Shown here: in pieces, positions 4,122-63,800 of the stretch
Layout of the letters: every line of letters starts with the position of its first letter
How positions within the stretch are numbered: position 1 is the first letter of the stretch
Source: Oscillibacter sp. MSJ-31
GTDB taxonomy: Bacteria > Bacteroidota > Bacteroidia > Bacteroidales > Bacteroidaceae
Reading direction: 5' to 3'
DNA length: 64,000 nt
NCBI GenBank assembly: GCA_963629785.1
Contig: CAVGJZ010000008.1
Span: 6,938-70,937, forward strand
Notes under the pieces: model-generated
Databases searched by the model: none
Seen by the model: the letters and a program-made list of their open reading frames with translations, nothing else
Told to the model about the DNA's origin: nothing
Made by a program: the position numbers and the translations under genes

Positions 4122-5162
4122 ATGAACACAAGGAAAATAGCCAAAGGTATGGCGATTCTTTTCGCTGCGCTGCTGATAGCGGCATGCGCAAAAGAGAAAA
4201 AGGCAAGAGACTTTATACAACCCTGCAAGGTGATGATAGCCAAGCAATGCTCGCTCGAGAACAAGTGGTATTATGTGGGTGAGGTGAATGCCAAGACATC
4301 CACGGGAGTGGGTTTCAAGGTGCCGGGCACGGTAACGAAAATATACGTGAACGAGGGCGACCGGGTTACAAAGGGACAACTGCTGGCAGAACTAGACCCA
4401 CAGGACATGGAAAACAGCTACAACATGGCGCGCGCCACACTCAACCAGGCGGAGGACGCCATGCGCCGCGTGAACATAATGCACGAAGAGCAGAGTGTGT
4501 CGGACATCAAATACGTGGAGGTGCAGACAAAGCTGGAACAGGCACGGAGCATGTACTCTGCGGCGAAGAAGAGGCTCAACGACACAAAGCTGTACGCCCC
4601 AGTGTCGGGAGTGATAGGAAAGAGAGGAATTGAAGTGGGCGAAAGCTACGGCATGGTGCTCTCTGCCTTCACCATCCTCGACATTGACAATGTGGTGGTA
4701 AAGATACCTGTCCCCGAACGCGAGATTCCAAACATCAAGAAAGGCGACGAGGCAAAGGTTTACGTGCTCGCGCTTGGTGACTCCACATATTTCAACGCCC
4801 GCGTTGATGCCATCGGCGTGTCGAGCGACCCTCTCACCCACAGCTACGAGGCGCGCCTGAACATAAAGACCCCCGGCCACAAGCTTATGCAGGGCATGGT
4901 GTGCAACGTGCAGCTGTGGCCCAAGTCCACACAGGGCCGCAAGGGCTTCATACTGCCCATCACCGCCGTGAAGCTCAATACCGGCGACAGCTACTATGTG
5001 TGGGTGTCGAAAAACGGCAAGGCATACCGCCAGCCGGTGGACGTGGGCATGTACTCCAAGGACGGAGTGATAGTCTACGGCGGCATCAACGACGGGGACC
5101 ACGTCATCACCGAGGGACAGAGCAAGATATGCGACGGTCAAACGATAAAGGAGGCTAAATAG
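4122..5162 (+). CDS. Efflux RND transporter periplasmic adaptor subunit (HlyD/MFP family), lipoprotein
   Basis: Lipoprotein-type signal (LLIAACAKE). Barrel-sandwich/coiled-coil pattern typical of MFPs. Located immediately upstream of the RND pump. Confidence 0.9.
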   Translation: MNTRKIAKGMAILFAALLIAACAKEKKARDFIQPCKVMIAKQCSLENKWYYVGEVNAKTSTGVGFKVPGTVTKIYVNEGDRVTKGQLLAELDPQDMENSYNMARATLNQAEDAMRRVNIMHEEQSVSDIKYVEVQTKLEQARSMYSAAKKRLNDTKLYAPVSGVIGKRGIEVGESYGMVLSAFTILDIDNVVVKIPVPEREIPNIKKGDEAKVYVLALGDSTYFNARVDAIGVSSDPLTHSYEARLNIKTPGHKLMQGMVCNVQLWPKSTQGRKGFILPITAVKLNTGDSYYVWVSKNGKAYRQPVDVGMYSKDGVIVYGGINDGDHVITEGQSKICDGQTIKEAK

Positions 5163-9712: not shown

Positions 9713-10837
9713 TCAGTCTTTCACCTCCACAATCTTGGTCTTAGGCTGCTCCTTGTTGCGGCGGTTCACCTTTGTCACCACAGCCTGCGCAAGGTTGAGG
9801 AAACACTGGCCTGTAACGGTTTCCGGATGGCAAGCCGCCGGCATACCGTTGTCGCCGTTCTCGCAGATGCTCTGCACGAGGGGAATCTGCGCAAGGAGAG
9901 GGATATTCAGTTCGGCGGCAAGCTTCTTGCAGCCCTCCTTGCCAAAGATGTAGTATTTGTTCTCCGGCAGTTCGGCCGGCGTAAACCATGCCATATTCTC
10001 CACCATTCCAAGGATAGGCACGTTCACCTTGTCGTTCTGATACATGTCAATGCCTTTACGGGCATCGGCAAGAGCCACGCTCTGTGGAGTGCTCACTATC
10101 ACGGCACCCGTTATGGCGAGTGTCTGCAGGAGCGTAAGATGTATGTCGCTTGTGCCCGGCGGCGTGTCGAGGATAAAATAATCGAGGTCGCCCCAGTTGG
10201 CATCGGCGATGAGTTGCTTTAGCGCATTGGATGCCATGCCGCCGCGCCACAGTGTAGCAGTCTCGGCGTTCACGAAGAAACCGATGCTCAGCAGCTTCAC
10301 GCCATACTGTTCTACCGGTTCGATGAGTTTGCGCCCGTCCACCTCCACGGCATAAGGGCGCGCATCCTCGCAGTTGAACATCTTGGGCATTGACGGTCCG
10401 AAGATGTCGGTGTCGAGCAGTCCCACCTTGTAGCCGAGCCTTGCCAGGGCTATGGCGAGATTGGCAGACACGGTGCTCTTGCCCACTCCGCCTTTGCCGG
10501 AGCTTACGGCAATGACATTCTTCACATCAGGGAGAAGCTTGCCCACCTCGGGGCGAGGCTTTGACTTATACTCAAGGGTGATATTTATCTCGACCTGCGA
10601 CTTGCATTCATCGCCCAGCACTTTACCCACGTTATAGCGTATGGCAGCCTCGGCGGCCTTCACGGTAGACTTGAGGAAGGGGTCTGTCTCCCTTGGGAAT
10701 ATGAGCGAGAAGGAAACACTGTTTCCGTCGATGCGGAGGTTGTCCGCCACCATCTCACTCTCGACGAGATTTTTCTTTGTTCCCGGATACGTCACCGTCT
10801 GCAGCGCATCCGTGATAAGTTTTGGATATAGGGTCAT
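9713..10837 (-). CDS. Mrp/NBP35 (ApbC-like) iron-sulfur cluster carrier ATPase
   Basis: Deviant Walker A SGKGGVGKSTVSANLA, an N-terminal MIP18-like domain, and a length typical of the family. Confidence 0.9.
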   Translation of the reverse strand: MTLYPKLITDALQTVTYPGTKKNLVESEMVADNLRIDGNSVSFSLIFPRETDPFLKSTVKAAEAAIRYNVGKVLGDECKSQVEINITLEYKSKPRPEVGKLLPDVKNVIAVSSGKGGVGKSTVSANLAIALARLGYKVGLLDTDIFGPSMPKMFNCEDARPYAVEVDGRKLIEPVEQYGVKLLSIGFFVNAETATLWRGGMASNALKQLIADANWGDLDYFILDTPPGTSDIHLTLLQTLAITGAVIVSTPQSVALADARKGIDMYQNDKVNVPILGMVENMAWFTPAELPENKYYIFGKEGCKKLAAELNIPLLAQIPLVQSICENGDNGMPAACHPETVTGQCFLNLAQAVVTKVNRRNKEQPKTKIVEVKD

Positions 10838-18573: not shown

Positions 18574-19584
18574 ATGGATTGGAACAATTTTAGCTTTATT
18601 GACTTATTTGCCGGTATCGGCGGCATCAGACTGGGTTTTGAAGCAGCCGGAGGGCATTGTGTGTTTTCTTCTGAATTTGACGAAAATGCCTGCAAGACTT
18701 ATGAAGCAAACTTCGACGAGCATCCCTCTGGCGACATAACAAAAATCGACGCAAATGATATTCCGGACTTCGATATTCTCCTTGGCGGCTTTCCATGCCA
18801 AGCATTTTCCATCATAGGGAAAAAAGAAGGATTTGAAAATGAAACTTGCGGAACCTTGTTTTTTGAGATAGAGAGAATCCTAAAAGCAAAAATGCCCAAG
18901 GCTTTTATGCTTGAAAATGTAAGAAATCTGACGGCCCACGACAAGGGGAACACCTTCAAGGTGATACGAACCCATCTGGAAGCTTTGGGGTACACCGTCT
19001 ATGCCAAGGTTTTGAATGCGCTGGACTATGGTGTTCCACAAAAGAGAGAGAGGATTATTATCGTTGGCTTCAAGGACAACATATTCTTTTCATTTCCTGA
19101 CCCTGTGCCTGTTTACAAACGGAAAACTCTCAAGGACATTTTAGAGGACGACGTGGACGAGAAATACTATGTCAGGGATAAAATCAGAGAGTCAAGGCTC
19201 ATGCGCCTAAAAGACCCCAATTATCCCAAGCCATATATTTCGCATGAGAATATGGCCGGCAGCATTACGCCGCACCCCTACTCCTCTTGTCTGAGAGCAG
19301 GCGCTTCCGCCAACTACATACTGATAAACGACGAGCGGCGCCCGACGGAACGGGAGATGCTAAGAATACAAGGGTTTCCTGATGATTTCAAGATAGTAGT
19401 TCCATATAGTCAAGTGAAGCATCAAACCGGCAATTCCGTAGCTGTCCCTGTCATCAAAGCTGTCGCAAAACAAATGATTGACGCATTGAAAACTTTTGAA
19501 TCAAGCAAGAACAATGATAACAAGAGAACAAGCAAAAGCAGCTTTAGACACAGTCATCAAGAAATCCAGAGCACACTGGTATAA
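18574..19584 (+). CDS. DNA (cytosine-5)-methyltransferase, type II R-M
   Basis: C5-MTase motifs appear in order: FAGIGG (I), GFPCQAFS (IV), ENV (VI), QKRER (VIII), GNSVAVPV (X). The region looks AT-richer than its flanks. Confidence 0.92.
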   Translation: MDWNNFSFIDLFAGIGGIRLGFEAAGGHCVFSSEFDENACKTYEANFDEHPSGDITKIDANDIPDFDILLGGFPCQAFSIIGKKEGFENETCGTLFFEIERILKAKMPKAFMLENVRNLTAHDKGNTFKVIRTHLEALGYTVYAKVLNALDYGVPQKRERIIIVGFKDNIFFSFPDPVPVYKRKTLKDILEDDVDEKYYVRDKIRESRLMRLKDPNYPKPYISHENMAGSITPHPYSSCLRAGASANYILINDERRPTEREMLRIQGFPDDFKIVVPYSQVKHQTGNSVAVPVIKAVAKQMIDALKTFESSKNNDNKRTSKSSFRHSHQEIQSTLV

Positions 19585-20569
19585 GCCAATACAAGTGGCG
19601 GAAATCCTGTATAGAGACAGGGTTCACAAAGACATAAAGCTCCGCTCATTGGAAGACTATAGAACGAAGAGCAAGAAATGGAGAGACGAGGTGTCCATCG
19701 GGTTACTTGGAAGGGTCTGCACGAGCAGCACCCGATTCCAAGACGACCTGTTTAACGACAACGCAACTCCTCCTGCCATTCTTGAAGTTTTGGGAAAAGA
19801 AAATCGCCGGACTAAAGGTGCAGTAGAGGCATACATCTACAGTAAGTTTGACACCAAACATGAGCAGCTGTCAAACGCATTGTCTTATTGTCTGGATGGA
19901 GACACCAAGACATTTATGGTGAAGAACTTTATAGACTCTTTCTGGAATGAGCCGGGATTGAAGAGAAGTCTTGATAAGATCTATGAAATCATTGTGTACG
20001 CCTTATTTTCAACATTGGTTGACACCATGAATCTTGAAGTTGAAGTCACTGTAAAAGAAGACGCTTATCCTTTGCTAAAGGAGTTTGAAGACTTTACACA
20101 AAAAGTGATGTGTTTAGACTGTTCATCTCCGCGACACATACAAGAAGCGAAGGTCTATCGGGTTGGTGTAACAAATGCTGCTGACAGAGGTCTGGACATG
20201 TATTCAAATTGGGGACCTGCTATCCAGATTAAACACTTGAGCCTGGACTTTTCTCTTGCAGAAAACATTGTAAACAGCATTTCGAGTGACCGTATTGTAA
20301 TTGTTTGCAAAGATGCAGAAAAAGACGTGATAGTGTCTCTTCTAACCCAAATCGGTTTGAGAAGCCACATCCAGGGCATTGTCACTGAAAATGATTTAGT
20401 CGACTGGTACGAGAAAGCCCTTCGGGGAAGTTACTCCGACCAATTGGGGGAAAAGCTTCTTTATTGCCTTGCGAGCGAAATAGCGGAAGAGTTTCCTTCG
20501 GCAGACAGAACTCCTGATATAATAAAGGAGAGACACTACGAATTGATTTCAGACCCGTTCTGGCAATAA
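19496..20569 (+). CDS. Putative type II restriction endonuclease partner of the C5 methyltransferase
   Basis: It overlaps the 3' end of the MTase gene on the same strand. A candidate PD-(D/E)xK core is GLDMYSNWGPAIQIKH. The alternative start is 19514 (MITREQ). The family is not assigned. Confidence 0.7.
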   Translation: MNQARTMITREQAKAALDTVIKKSRAHWYKPIQVAEILYRDRVHKDIKLRSLEDYRTKSKKWRDEVSIGLLGRVCTSSTRFQDDLFNDNATPPAILEVLGKENRRTKGAVEAYIYSKFDTKHEQLSNALSYCLDGDTKTFMVKNFIDSFWNEPGLKRSLDKIYEIIVYALFSTLVDTMNLEVEVTVKEDAYPLLKEFEDFTQKVMCLDCSSPRHIQEAKVYRVGVTNAADRGLDMYSNWGPAIQIKHLSLDFSLAENIVNSISSDRIVIVCKDAEKDVIVSLLTQIGLRSHIQGIVTENDLVDWYEKALRGSYSDQLGEKLLYCLASEIAEEFPSADRTPDIIKERHYELISDPFWQ

Positions 20570-20598
20570 AGCAAGTGACGACAAAAAAAAACACCACA

Positions 20599-20936
20599 GC
20601 ACTTGCTATATACCCTTTGTGCAACATTTGAAAAGTGTTCCAAATGTCGCATTTTACAGATGTGGAACTTGCTGAGATTTTAACCGAATTTCGCCGTTCT
20701 TTTATGATAAATACAAAATGTTGATAATCAACACAATAGATATATCTCAAAAACCGATACCCCAAAACCTCGGAGAAAACGATAGCTTTTCGGGGAGGAA
20801 ACGATAGCTTTGCCCGGAGGAAACGATAGCTTTGCTCCACGAAAAGCACTGCTCATTAAAATCAGACAAAAGAATAAAGTGTTCCAAATGTCTTATTTGT
20901 AAAACATTTTGCAAACATACTCCAAACGCCTATACC
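20599..20936 (-). repeat. Copy A of the TIR-bounded palindromic element, with the left terminus missing
   Basis: It aligns along its length with copies B and C. The right end CTCCAAACGCCTATACC is present. The left TIR is absent and homology starts at GCACTTGCTATATACC, 30 bp after the endonuclease stop. Confidence 0.75.
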
Positions 20937-21013
20937 AAAAAATTAATTGGTCCGATTTGAGAACGTCGGCATCCATCTTCGGATGACAGATTTTGAAATT
21001 AAAGAGCCATTTG

Positions 21014-26750: not shown

Positions 26751-27077
26751 TCAAAGGGCGGCAGCCACTCTCCTTACTTGCGCCAGACGCTCCATAAACG
26801 AAACATCCTTCTTTGTTGTCTGGATATTGTAGCGCATTTGCATCCTGAGCAATGGTTCTGCATTAACTCCCAAAGCAGCTTCAAACAGAAGAGCCGTTTT
26901 CTCTGTAACAGGGCGACGCGCATTCAAAATTTCATTCAATGCAGAATAGGCGATTCCCATATCCCCAGCCAGCTTACGCTGAGAAATCCCTCTGTATTCT
27001 ATTTCATCTTTCAAAATTAAACCCGGGTGAGTTGGGAAAGCCGAAGCCATATCGTTTGCTGTTGTTTTCTTGTCCAT
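26751..27077 (-). CDS. higA: HigA-family antitoxin (XRE-type HTH)
   Basis: HPGLILKDEIEYRGISQRKLAGDMGIAYSALNEILNARRPVT. It lies directly downstream of the higB-like gene. Confidence 0.85.
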   Translation of the reverse strand: MDKKTTANDMASAFPTHPGLILKDEIEYRGISQRKLAGDMGIAYSALNEILNARRPVTEKTALLFEAALGVNAEPLLRMQMRYNIQTTKKDVSFMERLAQVRRVAAAL

Positions 27078-27083
27078 ATTTGA

Positions 27084-27398
27084 TTATTTATAATGATTTG
27101 ACAAATCTGTAATATTACATATCGTGGCTATGGTTTGACCATTTTCGAATTCCTCCTCAAATTCTATCCGATATTGGTCGTTTACCCTTATTGAAGACAA
27201 ACCCGATTTGCCACCTTCCAAACGTTCATAATTCAGAGAGTTATATTTCCACAACCCTTGTACATTATCCTCGGCTATCATAAGATCTATGATGCGGATA
27301 TATTTCCTTACTATTTGGGGCTGAAAGCGATGCTTCTTATCAGACTTTCCGTGACAGTAAAGATCTTGCAGGTAATCCTCGTTAAATTTTACTTCCAT
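27084..27398 (-). CDS. higB: HigB-like (RelE/ParE superfamily) toxin
   Basis: The 104-aa product MEVKFNEDYL...SSIRVNDQYRIEFEEE...DLSNHYK uses only the 3' 315 nt of the long 27084-28754 track ORF. Confidence 0.8.
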   Translation of the reverse strand: MEVKFNEDYLQDLYCHGKSDKKHRFQPQIVRKYIRIIDLMIAEDNVQGLWKYNSLNYERLEGGKSGLSSIRVNDQYRIEFEEEFENGQTIATICNITDLSNHYK

Positions 27399-27522
27399 AT
27401 ATTCCGCCTTATAAATGCAAAGGTAAAACATAAATCTTACGTTCACAAATTTAGTGAACATATTTAGTATCATTTCACCTGTGTTCCAGCTAACCGTCAA
27501 AGCCCAAGGGACGCTTTGCCGA

Positions 27523-27610
27523 CCGTGCATCGTACGATAAGAGATTGCACATCGTACGATAAGAGACCGTGCATCGTACGATAAGAGGTCGTGCATCGTA
27601 CGATGTACAG
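27523..27610. repeat. Four head-to-tail 22-bp repeats, each carrying the perfect palindrome ATCGTACGAT
   Basis: Units begin at 27523, 27545, 27567 and 27589 (CCGTGC-ATCGTACGAT-AAGAGA and variants). Palindrome centres are spaced exactly 22 bp apart. Confidence 0.9.
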
Positions 27611-27750
27611 TCGGAGAAGCTACGCTTTGAAGCCGGGGAAACGGCTTTTGAAGCAAGAGCCGTGCCCGGAACACTGTTTTTGGAAGGCGGAAAGGGCGTG
27701 TTACGATTATTTTATATAACTTTGCCGACATTATTATATATACAACATAA

Positions 27751-36874: not shown

Positions 36875-37282
36875 TCATTTTTCAATCAAGAAATAATCTT
36901 CCAGTTTCAGAACCGTGACTTTAGGCCATTCGATTGTCTTCAACACCGAGAAATGCGAGTCGTTAGACACTATAAAGTCCGCCCCGGCTGCTATCGCACA
37001 ATCAACAAATTTATTGTCGTCGGGGTCTTTTTCTATCAGTCGGAAATGCACATAGGATGTCTGAAAAGACGTCGTTGACAATCTGGCAATAGCCTCAACA
37101 ACATTATGAGCAATCCGTGATGTTGTCTTCAAACCGACAATTTCCTCATATTCCTCAAGGATTTCCGTGTTTACACATAAACCCACCTTGCCGTCTAGAA
37201 TTTTCTCCCACAAAATATGGTACTTGCTACCAGACGGCAATATCTGCAACAAGCAGTTTGTGTCAAGAACGATTAGCTGCAT
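36875..37282 (-). CDS. PIN-domain toxin of a toxin-antitoxin pair
   Basis: IVLDTNCLLQ (first acidic residue) and DPDDNKFVDCAIAAGADFIVSNDSHF. Confidence 0.8.
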   Translation of the reverse strand: MQLIVLDTNCLLQILPSGSKYHILWEKILDGKVGLCVNTEILEEYEEIVGLKTTSRIAHNVVEAIARLSTTSFQTSYVHFRLIEKDPDDNKFVDCAIAAGADFIVSNDSHFSVLKTIEWPKVTVLKLEDYFLIEK

Positions 37283-37487: not shown

Positions 37488-37647
37488 AATTTTTGGTATT
37501 ATCACAATTACGGTTACAAAGTTACTAATTATTTCTTGCGGACAATATTTAGTGACGGTGAAAAAAATCTAATGTCAGTCTTCTGCGTTGTTTTCCTCAA
37601 ATTCAGCAATCCACTCCTTATCCTTTGCCGGCTGCAAAGCCCGCTCA

Positions 37648-41491: not shown

Positions 41492-41589
41492 TAAGGGGAA
41501 AATCCTAATGTCGTTACCTACGCCGGCATTACCCGGATCAGGCATATTGGGTCTAATCTCAGCACCCGCAAAAGCGGCAGCACCCCTTA
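41492..41589 (-). promoter_or_regulatory. TPP (THI-box) riboswitch aptamer
   Basis: The minus strand reads TAAGGGGTGCTGCCGCTTTTGCGGGTGCTGAGATTAGACCCAATATGCCTGATCCGGGTAATGCCGGCGTAGGTAACGACATTAGGATTTTCCCCTTA. P1 is TAAGGGG/CCCCTTA, and the CTGAGA and CTGATCCGGGTAATGCCGGCGTAGG hallmarks are present. A TACCTTTG (TAnnTTTG) -7-like box lies at 41612-41619. Confidence 0.9.
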
Positions 41590-41726
41590 GTTGGCATTTT
41601 GCCAACCGCTTGCAAAGGTAGCGCATTATGCCGACATGGCAAAATTTTTCAGCGCAAATCGGCGTTTCGCCGATATTTCCTGCCTATTTCCCTGTCGTAA
41701 AGCATTGCTTTGTCTGTCTTACACCA

Positions 41727-41830
41727 CTTGCCATACGACCGTATGCCCCTTGCCGTACGACCGTATGCCCCTTGCCGTACGATTGTATGCCTCTTGCCAA
41801 ACAATCGTACGGCAAGAGGCATAAGGCAAG
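41727..41830. repeat. Three direct 22-bp repeats (CTTGCCGTACGACCGTATGCCC type) followed by an inverted partial unit that forms a 13-bp hairpin
   Basis: Units lie at 41727, 41749 and 41771. The hairpin pairs TATGCCTCTTGCC (41786-41798) with GGCAAGAGGCATA (41811-41823) around a 12-nt loop. Confidence 0.85.
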
Positions 41831-41910: not shown

Positions 41911-42276
41911 TATAGGTATAGGCATTTAGGGCATATATACAAAATGTTTTACAAATAAGACATTTGGAACACTTTGTTTTGGGGTCTGATTTTAAGGAGC
42001 AGTGCTTTTCGGGGAGGAAACGATAGCTTTGCTCCCCGAAAAGCTATCGTTTTCGCCGAGATTTTGGGGTATCGTTTTTTAGGATGTATATATTATGCTG
42101 ATTATCAATATTTTGCATTTACCCTAAAAGAACAGTACAATCCTGTTAAAATTCAGGTAAGTCCCACATCGGCAAAATGCGACATTTGGAACACTTTTCA
42201 AATAACACACAAAGGGCATATAACAACACCTTAAACAGAGCATTTTGTGAGTGCGCCCTAAATGCCTATACCTATA
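41911..42276 (+). mobile_element. Copy B of the TIR-bounded palindromic element (MITE-like), reference copy
   Basis: Perfect 22-bp terminal inverted repeats TATAGGTATAGGCATTTAGGGC / GCCCTAAATGCCTATACCTATA. It also carries the internal GACATTTGGAACAC direct repeats and a cruciform core. Confidence 0.6.
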
Positions 42277-42343
42277 AAAAATGTTGCCGAGCAATATTTT
42301 GCATGGCAACACTTTGTTTATTTTCGTTTTCACCGTGAAGGAA

Positions 42344-62274: not shown

Positions 62275-62350
62275 TGTGCGTAGTCAAGTTTTTTACGGCG
62301 GCAAAGTTAATGTATTTTTTCCGTATGGAGTTAAGTGACGATTAAAAAAT

Positions 62351-62735
62351 TAGGTATAGACGTTTAGGACGCACTTACAAAATGCTCTGTTTAAGGCGTT
62401 GCTATATACCCCTTGTGTGTTGTTTGAAAAGTGTTCCAAATGTCGCATTTTGCCGATGCAGGACTTGCGGAAATCTCAACCGAATTTTGCCGCTCTTTTA
62501 GGATAAACGCAAAATATTGACAATCAACATAATATACATATCCTAAAAACCGACACCCCAAAACCTCGGCGAAAACGATAGCTTTTCGGGGAGCAAAGCT
62601 ATCGTTTCCTCCGGGCAAAGCTATCGTTTCCTCCCCGAAAAGCACTGCTCCTTAAAATCAGACAAAAAACAAAGTGTTCCAAATGTCTTATTTGTAAAAC
62701 ATTTTGCAAGCGTATTCTAAACGCCTATACCTATA
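62351..62735 (-). mobile_element. Copy C of the TIR-bounded palindromic element (complete)
   Basis: TIRs TAGGTATAGACGTTTAGGA / TCTAAACGCCTATACCTA match at 17 of 19 positions. It is collinear with copy B in reverse orientation and carries one extra 22-bp core unit. Confidence 0.6.
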
Positions 62736-62929: not shown

Positions 62930-63430
62930 ATGAAGAAACAACACGCAAGACTTATGGCAGCCATGGTGGAATATGACCGTGGCGATGCCGCGAGAATCCA
63001 GCATTTCGTCAAAGTTCATGATTTCGCAGCCACTATAGGCAATTTGGAAGGGGTGGACAAGGACACGATGTTCATCCTCGAGACTGCCGCCATCCTCCAC
63101 GACATCGGCATACACAAGAGCGAAAGCCTCTACGGCGACTGCAACGGCAAGCACCAAGAGGAGCTGGGGCCCGCCGAGGCTCTAAGGTTGATGCAGGACG
63201 TGGGAGGGTACACCGCAGAGCAGATGGACCGCGTCTGCTTCCTCATCTCACGCCACCACACCTACACGGGAGTGGACGGCATCGACTGGCAGATTCTTCT
63301 CGAAGCGGATTTCCTTGTCAATTCCTTTGAGGACAAGCTTTCTGCCGATGCCATCGCACACTTTGAGGAAAAGGTTTTCAGGACGGAAACAGGAAAACGG
63401 TTGCTCGATTTAATGACGGTAAAAAAATAA
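62930..63430 (+). CDS. HD-domain phosphohydrolase
   Basis: AAILHDIG (HD motif) and RHHTY in a 166-aa protein. Confidence 0.82.
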   Translation: MKKQHARLMAAMVEYDRGDAARIQHFVKVHDFAATIGNLEGVDKDTMFILETAAILHDIGIHKSESLYGDCNGKHQEELGPAEALRLMQDVGGYTAEQMDRVCFLISRHHTYTGVDGIDWQILLEADFLVNSFEDKLSADAIAHFEEKVFRTETGKRLLDLMTVKK

Positions 63431-63526
63431 GTTGGTATGTATTCATAGTTCTCAAATCGTACCAAGTTGTTTTTTATCGTCACTTAATTCAGGGGTTATA
63501 TTATTTTCGGAAGAATGTCGAAAAAC

Positions 63527-63800
63527 GACATTTGGAACACTTCTGATTTCCTTGCATTTAGCAGAGCACTGCTTTTCGGGGAGCAAAACTATCGTTTCCT
63601 CCTCGCAAAGCTATCGTTTCCTCCCCGAAAAGCAGTGCTTTGCTAGGAGAAAACGACACCTCCTTTTAAAGTATATCTACACTATATTGATTATCAATAC
63701 CTTACAAGAATCACAAAACACACTTTCAAACCATCTCAAACTCCCGATATTTACGCCACGCAAATTACGACATCTGGAACATTTCTATCAAAAGATTTAG
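63527..63800 (+). repeat. Copy D of the palindromic element, degenerate and without clear TIRs
   Basis: It contains GACATTTGGAACAC (63527-63540), the core CTTTTCGGGG-41 bp-CCCCGAAAAG (63572-63632), TTGATTATCAAT, and a second GACATCTGGAACAT (63769-63782). Confidence 0.5.

Follow-up and report, generated by a model that had tools for sequence, protein, structure and literature searches.

What is the repeat of about 370 bp with inverted ends that occurs four times within 64,000 nucleotides of contig CAVGJZ010000008.1? This 64-kb stretch of DNA, referred to here as the window, was described in an earlier note as carrying four copies (A, B, C, and D) of an unrecognised intergenic element. The element was proposed to behave like a MITE (miniature inverted-repeat transposable element), or else like a dispersed structured RNA or protein-binding module. 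We conclude, with a probability of roughly 0.6, that the copies belong to a family of small non-autonomous transposable elements of the MITE type in a narrow Prevotellaceae lineage. This reading was reached because the copies are small, non-coding, AT-rich, and intergenic, have terminal inverted repeats (TIRs) with TA, lie at many flanks, occur nested, fall into age subfamilies, and have a narrow host range. The family is most likely new, as it has no match in Rfam, in plasmids, phages, or IMG/VR, or in the searchable literature.

Direct and inverted repeat detection connected positions 20603-20936, 41911-42276, 62351-62735, and 63521-63661 of the window, and a four-way alignment showed an identical module order in A, B, C, and D. 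A profile was built with nhmmer from nine aligned copies and scanned over the whole window. It matched only C (62405-62732, E = 7e-116), A (20609-20937, E = 3e-102), B (41914-42220, E = 3e-99), and D (63514-63786, E = 3e-25). These results demonstrate that the four copies are real, far beyond chance, and at about the places first reported. The boundaries of two of them were revised. Copy A had been thought to lack its left terminus, but it reaches about 20577 rather than 20599. It ends in a short-form end (...CAAGTGYTG...T9 GTCGT) that recurs in six copies of other samples, and copy A is therefore not a simple truncation. Copy D is present and degenerate as described, but its homology with a copy on contig L010 places its start at about 63454 instead of about 63527, and it belongs to a diverged subfamily. 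By age, a young group (B, C, and A) was distinguished from old relics (D, L010, and L022; the L numbers denote contigs outside the window). The coordinates of the copies and of the parts of copy B are given in Table 1.

Table 1. Positions of the four copies in the window and of the modules within copy B.
Feature	Position	Strand	Description
Copy B	41911-42276	+	complete TIR form, 366 bp, 36.9% GC
Left TIR of B	41911-41932	+	TATAGGTATAGGCATTTAGGGC; family-wide core GTATAGGCRTTTAGRRC, TA-G directly before
Box 1	41941-41975	+	35-nt block AAAATGTTTTACAAATAAGACATTTGGAACACTTT, unvarying in nine copies; includes GACATTTG
Core quasi-palindrome	42004-42044		13-bp arms GCTTTTCGGGGAG / CTCCCCGAAAAGC around 22-bp repeat units
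TTTTGGGG box	42062-42069	+	invariant
IHF-like site	42103-42115	+	TATCAATATTTTG within TGATTATCA palindrome; fits E. coli IHF consensus WATCAANNNNTTR
Box 2	42180-42202	+	23-nt block CGACATTTGGAACACTTTTCAAA, unvarying in nine copies; direct repeat of box 1
Right TIR of B	42255-42276	+	abuts T-run of lrp terminator hairpin
Copy C	62351-62735	-	complete TIR form, 385 bp, two core units; tonB/HD divergent region
Copy A	20577-20936	-	short form: left TIR and both boxes, core loop inverted
Right end of A			...GCAAGTGCTGTGGTG-T9-GTCGT, without right TIR; 8 nt from HaeII endonuclease stop codon
Copy D	63454-63790	+	older diverged subfamily, grouped with L010 and the L022 relic
Features of D			core arms reach 19 bp; box 2 degenerate (GACATCTGGAACAT); no recognisable TIR

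All four copies, which are 337-385 bp long and jointly make up 2.3% of the window, are intergenic, with a GC content of 37-40% against 53% for the window. The flanking genes bore out the claim of unrelated contexts. Copy A is bordered by the 3' ends of xseA and of a HaeII-type restriction endonuclease gene, a neighbour added here. Copy B lies between the 3' end of lrp and a thiamine pyrophosphate (TPP)-riboswitch operon encoding a TonB-dependent receptor, a Pnu-type transporter, and thiamine pyrophosphokinase. Copy C sits in the intergenic stretch from which tonB and the HD gene diverge, and copy D is 3' of the HD gene. The HD gene was identified via homologs annotated with PF01966 in Pfam; the window protein itself has no Pfam match. 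As had been stated, the window holds no transposase: Pfam scans of its 48 long open reading frames (ORFs) revealed no transposase or integrase domain.

The anatomy was read from the alignment of nine copies. The left end is sharp, since the flanks become unalignable exactly before (TA)(G)GTATAGGCRTTTAGRRC in the 11 ends compared. TA occupied positions -3/-2 in 9 of these 11 ends, compared with 6.6% TA in the flanks, and the three complete copies (B, C, and L012) each have it at both of their ends. The TIR of B is perfect over 22 bp, as claimed, and its inverted repeat can be followed to 36 nt at 86%. The alignment of C gave the 17 of 19 matching positions reported before, and L012 also has a TIR pair. 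A TIR of at least 10-15 bp was present in B (22/22), C (17/19), and L012, and absent in A, L014, L015, L016, D, and L010. The complete form (B and C, 366-385 bp) has TIRs of 20-36 bp bordered at each end by TA, within AT-rich DNA. Insertion sites frequently adjoin the T-run of a terminator.

Inside these ends, both direct copies of GACATTTGGAACAC were confirmed, at spacings of 222, 242, and 244 bp. The motif GACATTTG in the boxes is one base off the Bacteroidetes -7 box TAnnTTTG. The nine copies differ by 10-20% outside the boxes, and about 46% of the columns outside boxes and core are variable, whereas both box blocks are invariant. The longest invariant run was 35 nt, compared with a mean of 10.8 and a maximum of 30 in 10,000 column shuffles, and no singleton (private) substitution was observed in the boxes against 10.6 expected (P = 8e-6). 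The other modules of the earlier note, namely the CTTTTCGGGG/CCCCGAAAAG arms, the AAACGATAGCTTT units with a period of 22, and the TGATTRTCA palindrome, are all present. For the two direct TTTTGGGG boxes, the second is conserved, but the first was found only in B and L011. The IHF consensus WATCAANNNNTTR matches four times in the window, three of them in copies A, B, and D; this consensus is that of E. coli and may not be relevant in the host. The boxes, core, and palindrome persist even in the old D subfamily and in the L022 relic. As single-stranded DNA, copy B has a folding energy of -67.8 kcal/mol (z = -8.7). For TGGAACA, inspection by eye led us to drop the sigma-54 and ECF-type readings, as the spacings misfit.

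The quasi-palindromic core contains one 22-bp unit in B and two in A, C, and D. The unit holds TAGCTTTG, a perfect Bacteroidetes -7 box (42024-42031 in B). Repeat detection showed that the 63-bp cores of A and C are 98% complementary while their flanks are direct repeats; the core loop is therefore inverted in A. The loop has the same orientation as A in D, L010, and the L022 relic, and the opposite one in B, C, and L009-L014 (L010 excepted). L015 shows a separate inversion, of the 15 nt that the nested repeats GATAGC and GCTATC enclose. As two independent inversions occurred among nine young copies, the quasi-palindrome is unstable. Either template switching or arm-arm recombination would yield such inversions; a classical invertase reaction, or the usual recombinase synapse, would need a longer segment than this core. 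A function of the core hairpin as an intrinsic terminator was also considered, and a terminator scan did not support it.

The only ORF conserved in the family, of 84-91 amino acids, is open inside the element in most copies (A, B, C, and eight database entries). Its variable columns are spread over the three codon positions as 35/82, 30/81, and 35/81, and it has no Pfam match. These results show that the ORF is without coding constraint and that the element is non-coding.

An alignment of the ORF translations served as a profile in the search for copies elsewhere. Nine database 'proteins' matched it, every one on a short ENA contig. The seven of these contigs that were examined (L009-L015, from ERZ15610xxx and ERZ273117xx) all carry the element, 80-91% identical and each with a different flank, and L010 is of the D type. 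The back-translated profile found one contig of a metagenome-assembled genome (MAG) in GTDB, L016 (CAVIFD01). Eight copies, all with differing flanks, are thus known outside the window, and the conserved left termini that had been sought in further copies were found at other flanks in other samples. HMMER over 1.84 billion representative proteins returned only two clusters, both already found. Within one sample, element-only contigs reached 3-4 times the coverage of a single-copy contig (47 vs 13 in ERZ15610140). This several-fold excess fits a multi-copy repeat, and metagenome contigs tend to break at the element.

Other searches gave no further copies. Exact-protein look-ups of the window HD and Lrp proteins had no match, and a strict DNA pattern (box plus hairpin arm) had none among 185,579 GTDB species representatives. 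A looser DNA pattern hit three loci in JGI metagenomes that had no further similarity and represent chance. Plasmid and phage records gave no blastn match. In IMG/VR the ORF profile had no match, and the TIR pattern gave five chance matches of about 20 nt. The view that no Rfam family describes the element was upheld by a scan of the whole window, with 0 matches at the gathering threshold; below it, the core matched only generic hairpin models of the microRNA (miRNA) type. In the searchable literature the motif strings occurred only as unrelated primer matches, and Bacteroidales MITEs were found only from P. gingivalis. The homologues of the Lrp protein carry the names Prevotella and Marseilla, and the thi promoter has the form TTTG-N19-TACCTTTG; the host therefore belongs to a rare Prevotellaceae lineage. 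The family is narrowly distributed and confined to a narrow lineage of the Prevotellaceae.

The right end is not uniform. In B and C it is an inverted copy of the left end. Copy A and L011-L016 end in ...ACAACAAGTGTTGCACTG-T8, followed by a variable piece of a second MITE-like element, and L009 is cut earlier. In the second element, the TIR (TG-T8-ACGACAATAGAGAC) spans about 25 nt, and GACAAT iterons lie within. It is long in L011-L013 and complete only in L012 (about 175 bp, 493-670), where a proper right TIR of the first element follows about 270 bp beyond, and the two elements, nested or adjacent, form a composite of about 660 bp. In L011 the contig stops inside it, and L013 has a copy without the right TIR. 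The piece measures about 60 nt in L016, 14 nt in L015, and 5 nt (GTCGT) in A and L014. Where it was seen (L011, L012, L013, and L016), the second element was always joined to short-form right ends; the window lacks it, except perhaps for the 5-nt remnant in A. The short form, to which copy A belongs, is the prevailing form in other samples. It may have multiplied from a composite master followed by deletions, or by a mechanism that needs the left end only.

Relatives of two of the loci could be reached: L001 (SRR19415671) for the C/D locus, at 87% nucleotide identity, and L022 for the B locus, with genes 70-84% identical. The alignment with L001 stops 24 bp short of C and picks up again about 150 bp past it, with an unrelated 211-amino-acid gene between, and its contig ends 10 bp beyond the start of D-type homology. 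L022 has no young copy at the site of B. It carries a diverged D-type relic (10292-10494, nhmmer E = 2e-8) whose lrp-thi site and orientation are those of B, which points either to an insertion hot spot or to an ancient copy that was later overwritten. In the search for empty versus filled sites, young copies were lacking at the C and B sites of L001 and L022, but both regions are rearranged or diverged, and the two loci were rejected as clean empty sites. They show turnover and age-structured subfamilies, without a transposition footprint.

How might such a family move and change? Under the MITE reading, a transposase encoded elsewhere in the genome, IS630/Tc1-like or of an IS5 subgroup, would recognise the ends, insert the element at TA, and duplicate the TA, a pattern like that of IS630/Tc1-type and some IS5-type elements. 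Once inserted, the element would undergo rearrangement of its palindromic core by inversion between nested inverted repeats, and the right end would often be replaced by, or fused to, the second MITE-like element. The host-promoter-like sequences (TAGCTTTG in the core, GACATTTG in the boxes) could alter neighbouring transcription, as in Correia elements and BrickBuilt.

Several observations weigh against this reading. Seven copies (A and L011-L016) have the ...CAAGTGTTGCACTG-T8 end at different flanks, and A, L014, L015, and L016 have no right TIR where the contig continues. As these short-form copies lie at different flanks, they multiplied without the canonical right end. The behaviour ascribed to a MITE holds in that the copies are dispersed, non-coding, AT-rich, and intergenic, with TIRs in the complete ones, but most copies outside the window have no right TIR, which is not what a simple TIR-MITE model predicts. 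The TA could be a target-site duplication (TSD) or, alternatively, the start of the TIR. The two boxes are direct rather than inverted, which is unusual for transposase-binding sites, and the lack of private substitutions in them hints at selection on resident copies beyond selfish needs. Neither L001 (for C) nor L022 (for B) provided a clean empty site. The longer transposase-bearing element with the same TIRs that the earlier note had suggested looking for was not found, and TIR-pattern scans of the collection gave chance matches only.

The invariance of the boxes is also a ground for regarding the element as a host-selected regulatory module, that is, a protein-binding and promoter cassette, perhaps once mobile, kept for the action of its boxes, IHF-like site, and core -7 boxes on neighbours. 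A variant of this idea is a dispersed operator or promoter bound by a single regulator. Both blocks stayed constant in copies that diverge elsewhere, the shuffles did not reproduce the longest run, and no singleton fell in the boxes, although substitutions that count as 'private' in a nine-copy sample may recur in unsampled copies. The core carries a perfect TAGCTTTG in a host that uses TTTG-N19-TAnnTTTG, for instance upstream of the TPP riboswitch, but the spacing from TTTG to the -7 box in the core is 14 nt, not 19-21. The IHF-consensus site is kept in position, and boxes, core, and palindrome survive in the D subfamily and the L022 relic. The family member at the same lrp-thi site of L022 in the same orientation fits too, but for a high-copy family this coincidence would arise about 1 time in 10 by chance. 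No regulator is linked, the contexts are unrelated and mostly gene 3' ends or convergent, and the core -7 boxes are antisense in A, B, and D. We regard a host-selected module as possible but doubtful; it is compatible with the MITE reading, and the two do not exclude each other. The protein-binding alternative of the earlier note is favoured by the two invariant boxes and opposed by the unrelated contexts. A bolder combination, which seems unlikely, is a mobile regulatory cassette in which a host or element factor would bind the boxes, the core with its -7 boxes would flip and redirect transcription, and the whole would spread without a right TIR. Spread with a fixed left and a variable right end would imply a transposition chemistry undescribed for Bacteroidota MITEs.

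That same asymmetry, with a left end precise in all copies and a right end in three forms, could suit mobility by a non-DDE route, through HUH (IS200/IS605-like or IS91-like rolling-circle) or site-specific enzymes that would use the left end and both direct boxes. The TIR of B and C would then be a secondary inverted duplication. Direct-repeat boxes lie near both ends, and the subterminal sites of IS200/IS605 elements are likewise near both ends; copies without the right TIR are the majority outside the window, and insertions adjoin T-runs and terminator hairpins. However, the potential box hairpins have only 4-5 A-T pairs, and no TnpA/TnpB, IS91, or IS110 gene was seen in the sequences examined. 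B, C, and L012 have good TIRs of 20-36 bp flanked by TA at each end, and HUH elements do not produce such ends; the short form is explicable as a composite with the second MITE followed by deletions. We consider this route improbable. A family of small RNA genes, or of structured RNAs acting in cis, with transcription from box 1 to the core hairpin as one example, would account for the 13-bp GC-rich stem followed by UAUCGUUUU, the near-consensus -7 motifs upstream, and the folding of the box-to-core segment (-40.4 kcal/mol, z = -2.7). But an RNA loop would be complementary between the two core orientations, and the nested inversion of L015 adds to this; the stems are constant and hence show no covariation; the scan found no terminator-like site, and Rfam offered only the sub-threshold miRNA hairpins. 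The structured-RNA option raised earlier is thereby weakened, and such an origin appears very improbable. A small protein-coding element can be set aside almost entirely. Copies A, B, and C and the eight database entries keep the ORF open, and metagenome gene callers predicted it, but its N-terminal part spans the invertible core and only two clusters match among the 1.84 billion proteins. It was rejected as a real gene by the codon-position statistics and the missing Pfam match.

The MITE reading was compared with known systems. MITEs are defined by a length of 50-800 bp, TIRs of at least 10-15 bp, a TSD of 2-10 bp, no transposase, and multiple copies (PMC11602168). The copies here measure 337-385 bp, have no coding capacity, and are dispersed, multi-copy, and intergenic (4 in the window and 8 elsewhere). 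A computational catalogue shows that Bacteroidota, Prevotella included, are rich in MITEs, most of which are specific to one genus (NAR 2024, PMC11602168), a picture that the present family fits. The closest described analogue in the same order, Bacteroidales, is BrickBuilt of Porphyromonas gingivalis, a MITE with a leader, a 23-nt minisatellite, a tail, IS5-like TIRs, and promoter activity (Klein et al. 2015, PMC4596501). Each of the two is intergenic, present in multiple copies, and restricted to a species, with a leader, a tandem repeat (23 nt in BrickBuilt, 22 nt here), and a tail; copies without one or both TIRs are numerous, and the putative TSDs are short or rich in A. The promoter-like elements of BrickBuilt have bidirectional potential (PMC4596501). 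However, there is no sequence similarity (IS5-like TIR GAGACCTTTGCA vs GTATAGGCRTTTAG here), BrickBuilt has up to 22.8 repeat units compared with 1-3 hairpin-enclosed units, and it has neither paired invariant boxes nor core inversion. Membership in BrickBuilt was ruled out by the 22-nt unit of other sequence and the unrelated TIR.

The Correia/NEMIS elements of Neisseria resemble the present family as small TIR-bounded elements with TA at the ends. Correia elements duplicate TA, and their TIR begins TATAG.... They differ in length (100-200 bp vs 337-385 bp), phylum, and sequence, they have no tandem-repeat core, and the TIR here departs after the first 5-6 bases from the Neisseria 26-bp TIR. 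An element of 204 bp with an internal IHF site, built-in promoters, and reported inversion has been described for Correia (PMC10969869); the IHF likeness is a match here to the E. coli consensus only, which may not be relevant in Bacteroidota. Length and TIR thus set the element apart from Correia/NEMIS. MITEs derived from IS630/Tc1-mariner elements, such as RUP of Streptococcus pneumoniae, insert at and duplicate TA, have TIRs, and target AT-rich DNA. The present copies share TA at the ends, TIRs, and AT-rich target DNA, but no IS630-family partner was identified and short-form copies lack one TIR.

Bacteroidales invertons likewise have a -7 promoter-type box between inverted repeats that is seen in both orientations. 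Here, the invertible segment is 15-37 bp between arms of 13-19 bp, Pfam scans revealed no invertase in the window, and orientation varies between copies, whereas an inverton switches at one locus by means of an invertase. REP/BIME sequences are clustered imperfect palindromes of 20-40 bp that go with a RAYT transposase; the present element is ten times longer, with TIRs and ordered modules, and no RAYT gene was seen.

Further features were observed near the copies. Between B and the thi promoter, a 22-bp tandem array (41727-41830, CTTGCCATACGACCGTATGCCC, 3.3 copies) is followed by an inverted unit and forms a long hairpin. It shares the period of 22 and the tandem-plus-inverted design of the element core in another sequence, and has sub-threshold RNA-OUT and miRNA matches. 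The TPP riboswitch (41498-41597, minus strand) scored 44.6 bits against the Rfam gathering score of 54.3 and was hence missed by the default scan; the textbook Bacteroidetes promoter TTTG-N19-TACCTTTG stands directly upstream of it. On the other side of B, the lrp terminator loop (42292-42320) has an exact 13-mer, CAATATTTTGCAT, in common with copy B, followed by the box-1-like AACACTTTGTTT, and an older relic may underlie this terminator. A T-run followed by (A/G)TCGTCAC lies beside A, C, and D (20575-20591, 37552-37567, and 62335-62349 on the minus strand; 63470-63483 on the plus strand). At the 3' end of the HD gene this motif pairs with ATGACGGTAAAAAAA (63413-63427), and L001 has the full palindrome GTGACGGTGAAAAAATTTTTCATCGTCAC at 5066-5100; the motif may be a terminator-like unit or a preferred target. 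In L010, a 60-bp palindrome (about 590-650) has the ends GAGACCTTTTTGTAC, which resemble the IS5-type TIR known from BrickBuilt and ISPg elements of P. gingivalis; this palindrome may represent a minimal MITE.

Elsewhere in the window, a HaeII-type restriction-modification pair (C5 methylase and HaeII endonuclease, 18574-20569) lies in a stretch with a lower GC content of 48%, which suggests horizontal acquisition. A HigB-like toxin and a helix-turn-helix antitoxin are encoded in an AT-rich islet (26751-27410), and a separate PIN-domain toxin gene at 36875-37282. Between the divergent HigB-like toxin gene and hflX, a 22-bp tandem array (27521-27612, CGTGCATCGTACGATAAGAGAT, 3.7 copies) with the palindrome ATCGTACGAT in each unit may be an operator array.

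As a kind, the element is ordinary; what stands out is its invariant boxes, the flip-prone core with promoter-type boxes, and the short form that lacks a TIR. According to the searchable literature and a review (PMC10969869), characterised MITEs of Bacteroidota come from P. gingivalis only, and others appear in bulk catalogues. A characterised family that occupies about 2% of the local sequence would aid annotation, since gene callers predict a spurious ORF of 84-126 amino acids in it. Contig breaks in assemblies would likewise be accounted for, and the family would be usable as a lineage marker. The invariant boxes offer a concrete candidate binding site. If the boxes are active or the core switches, the family would bring variation in expression near genes for TonB-dependent uptake, thiamine uptake, and regulators.

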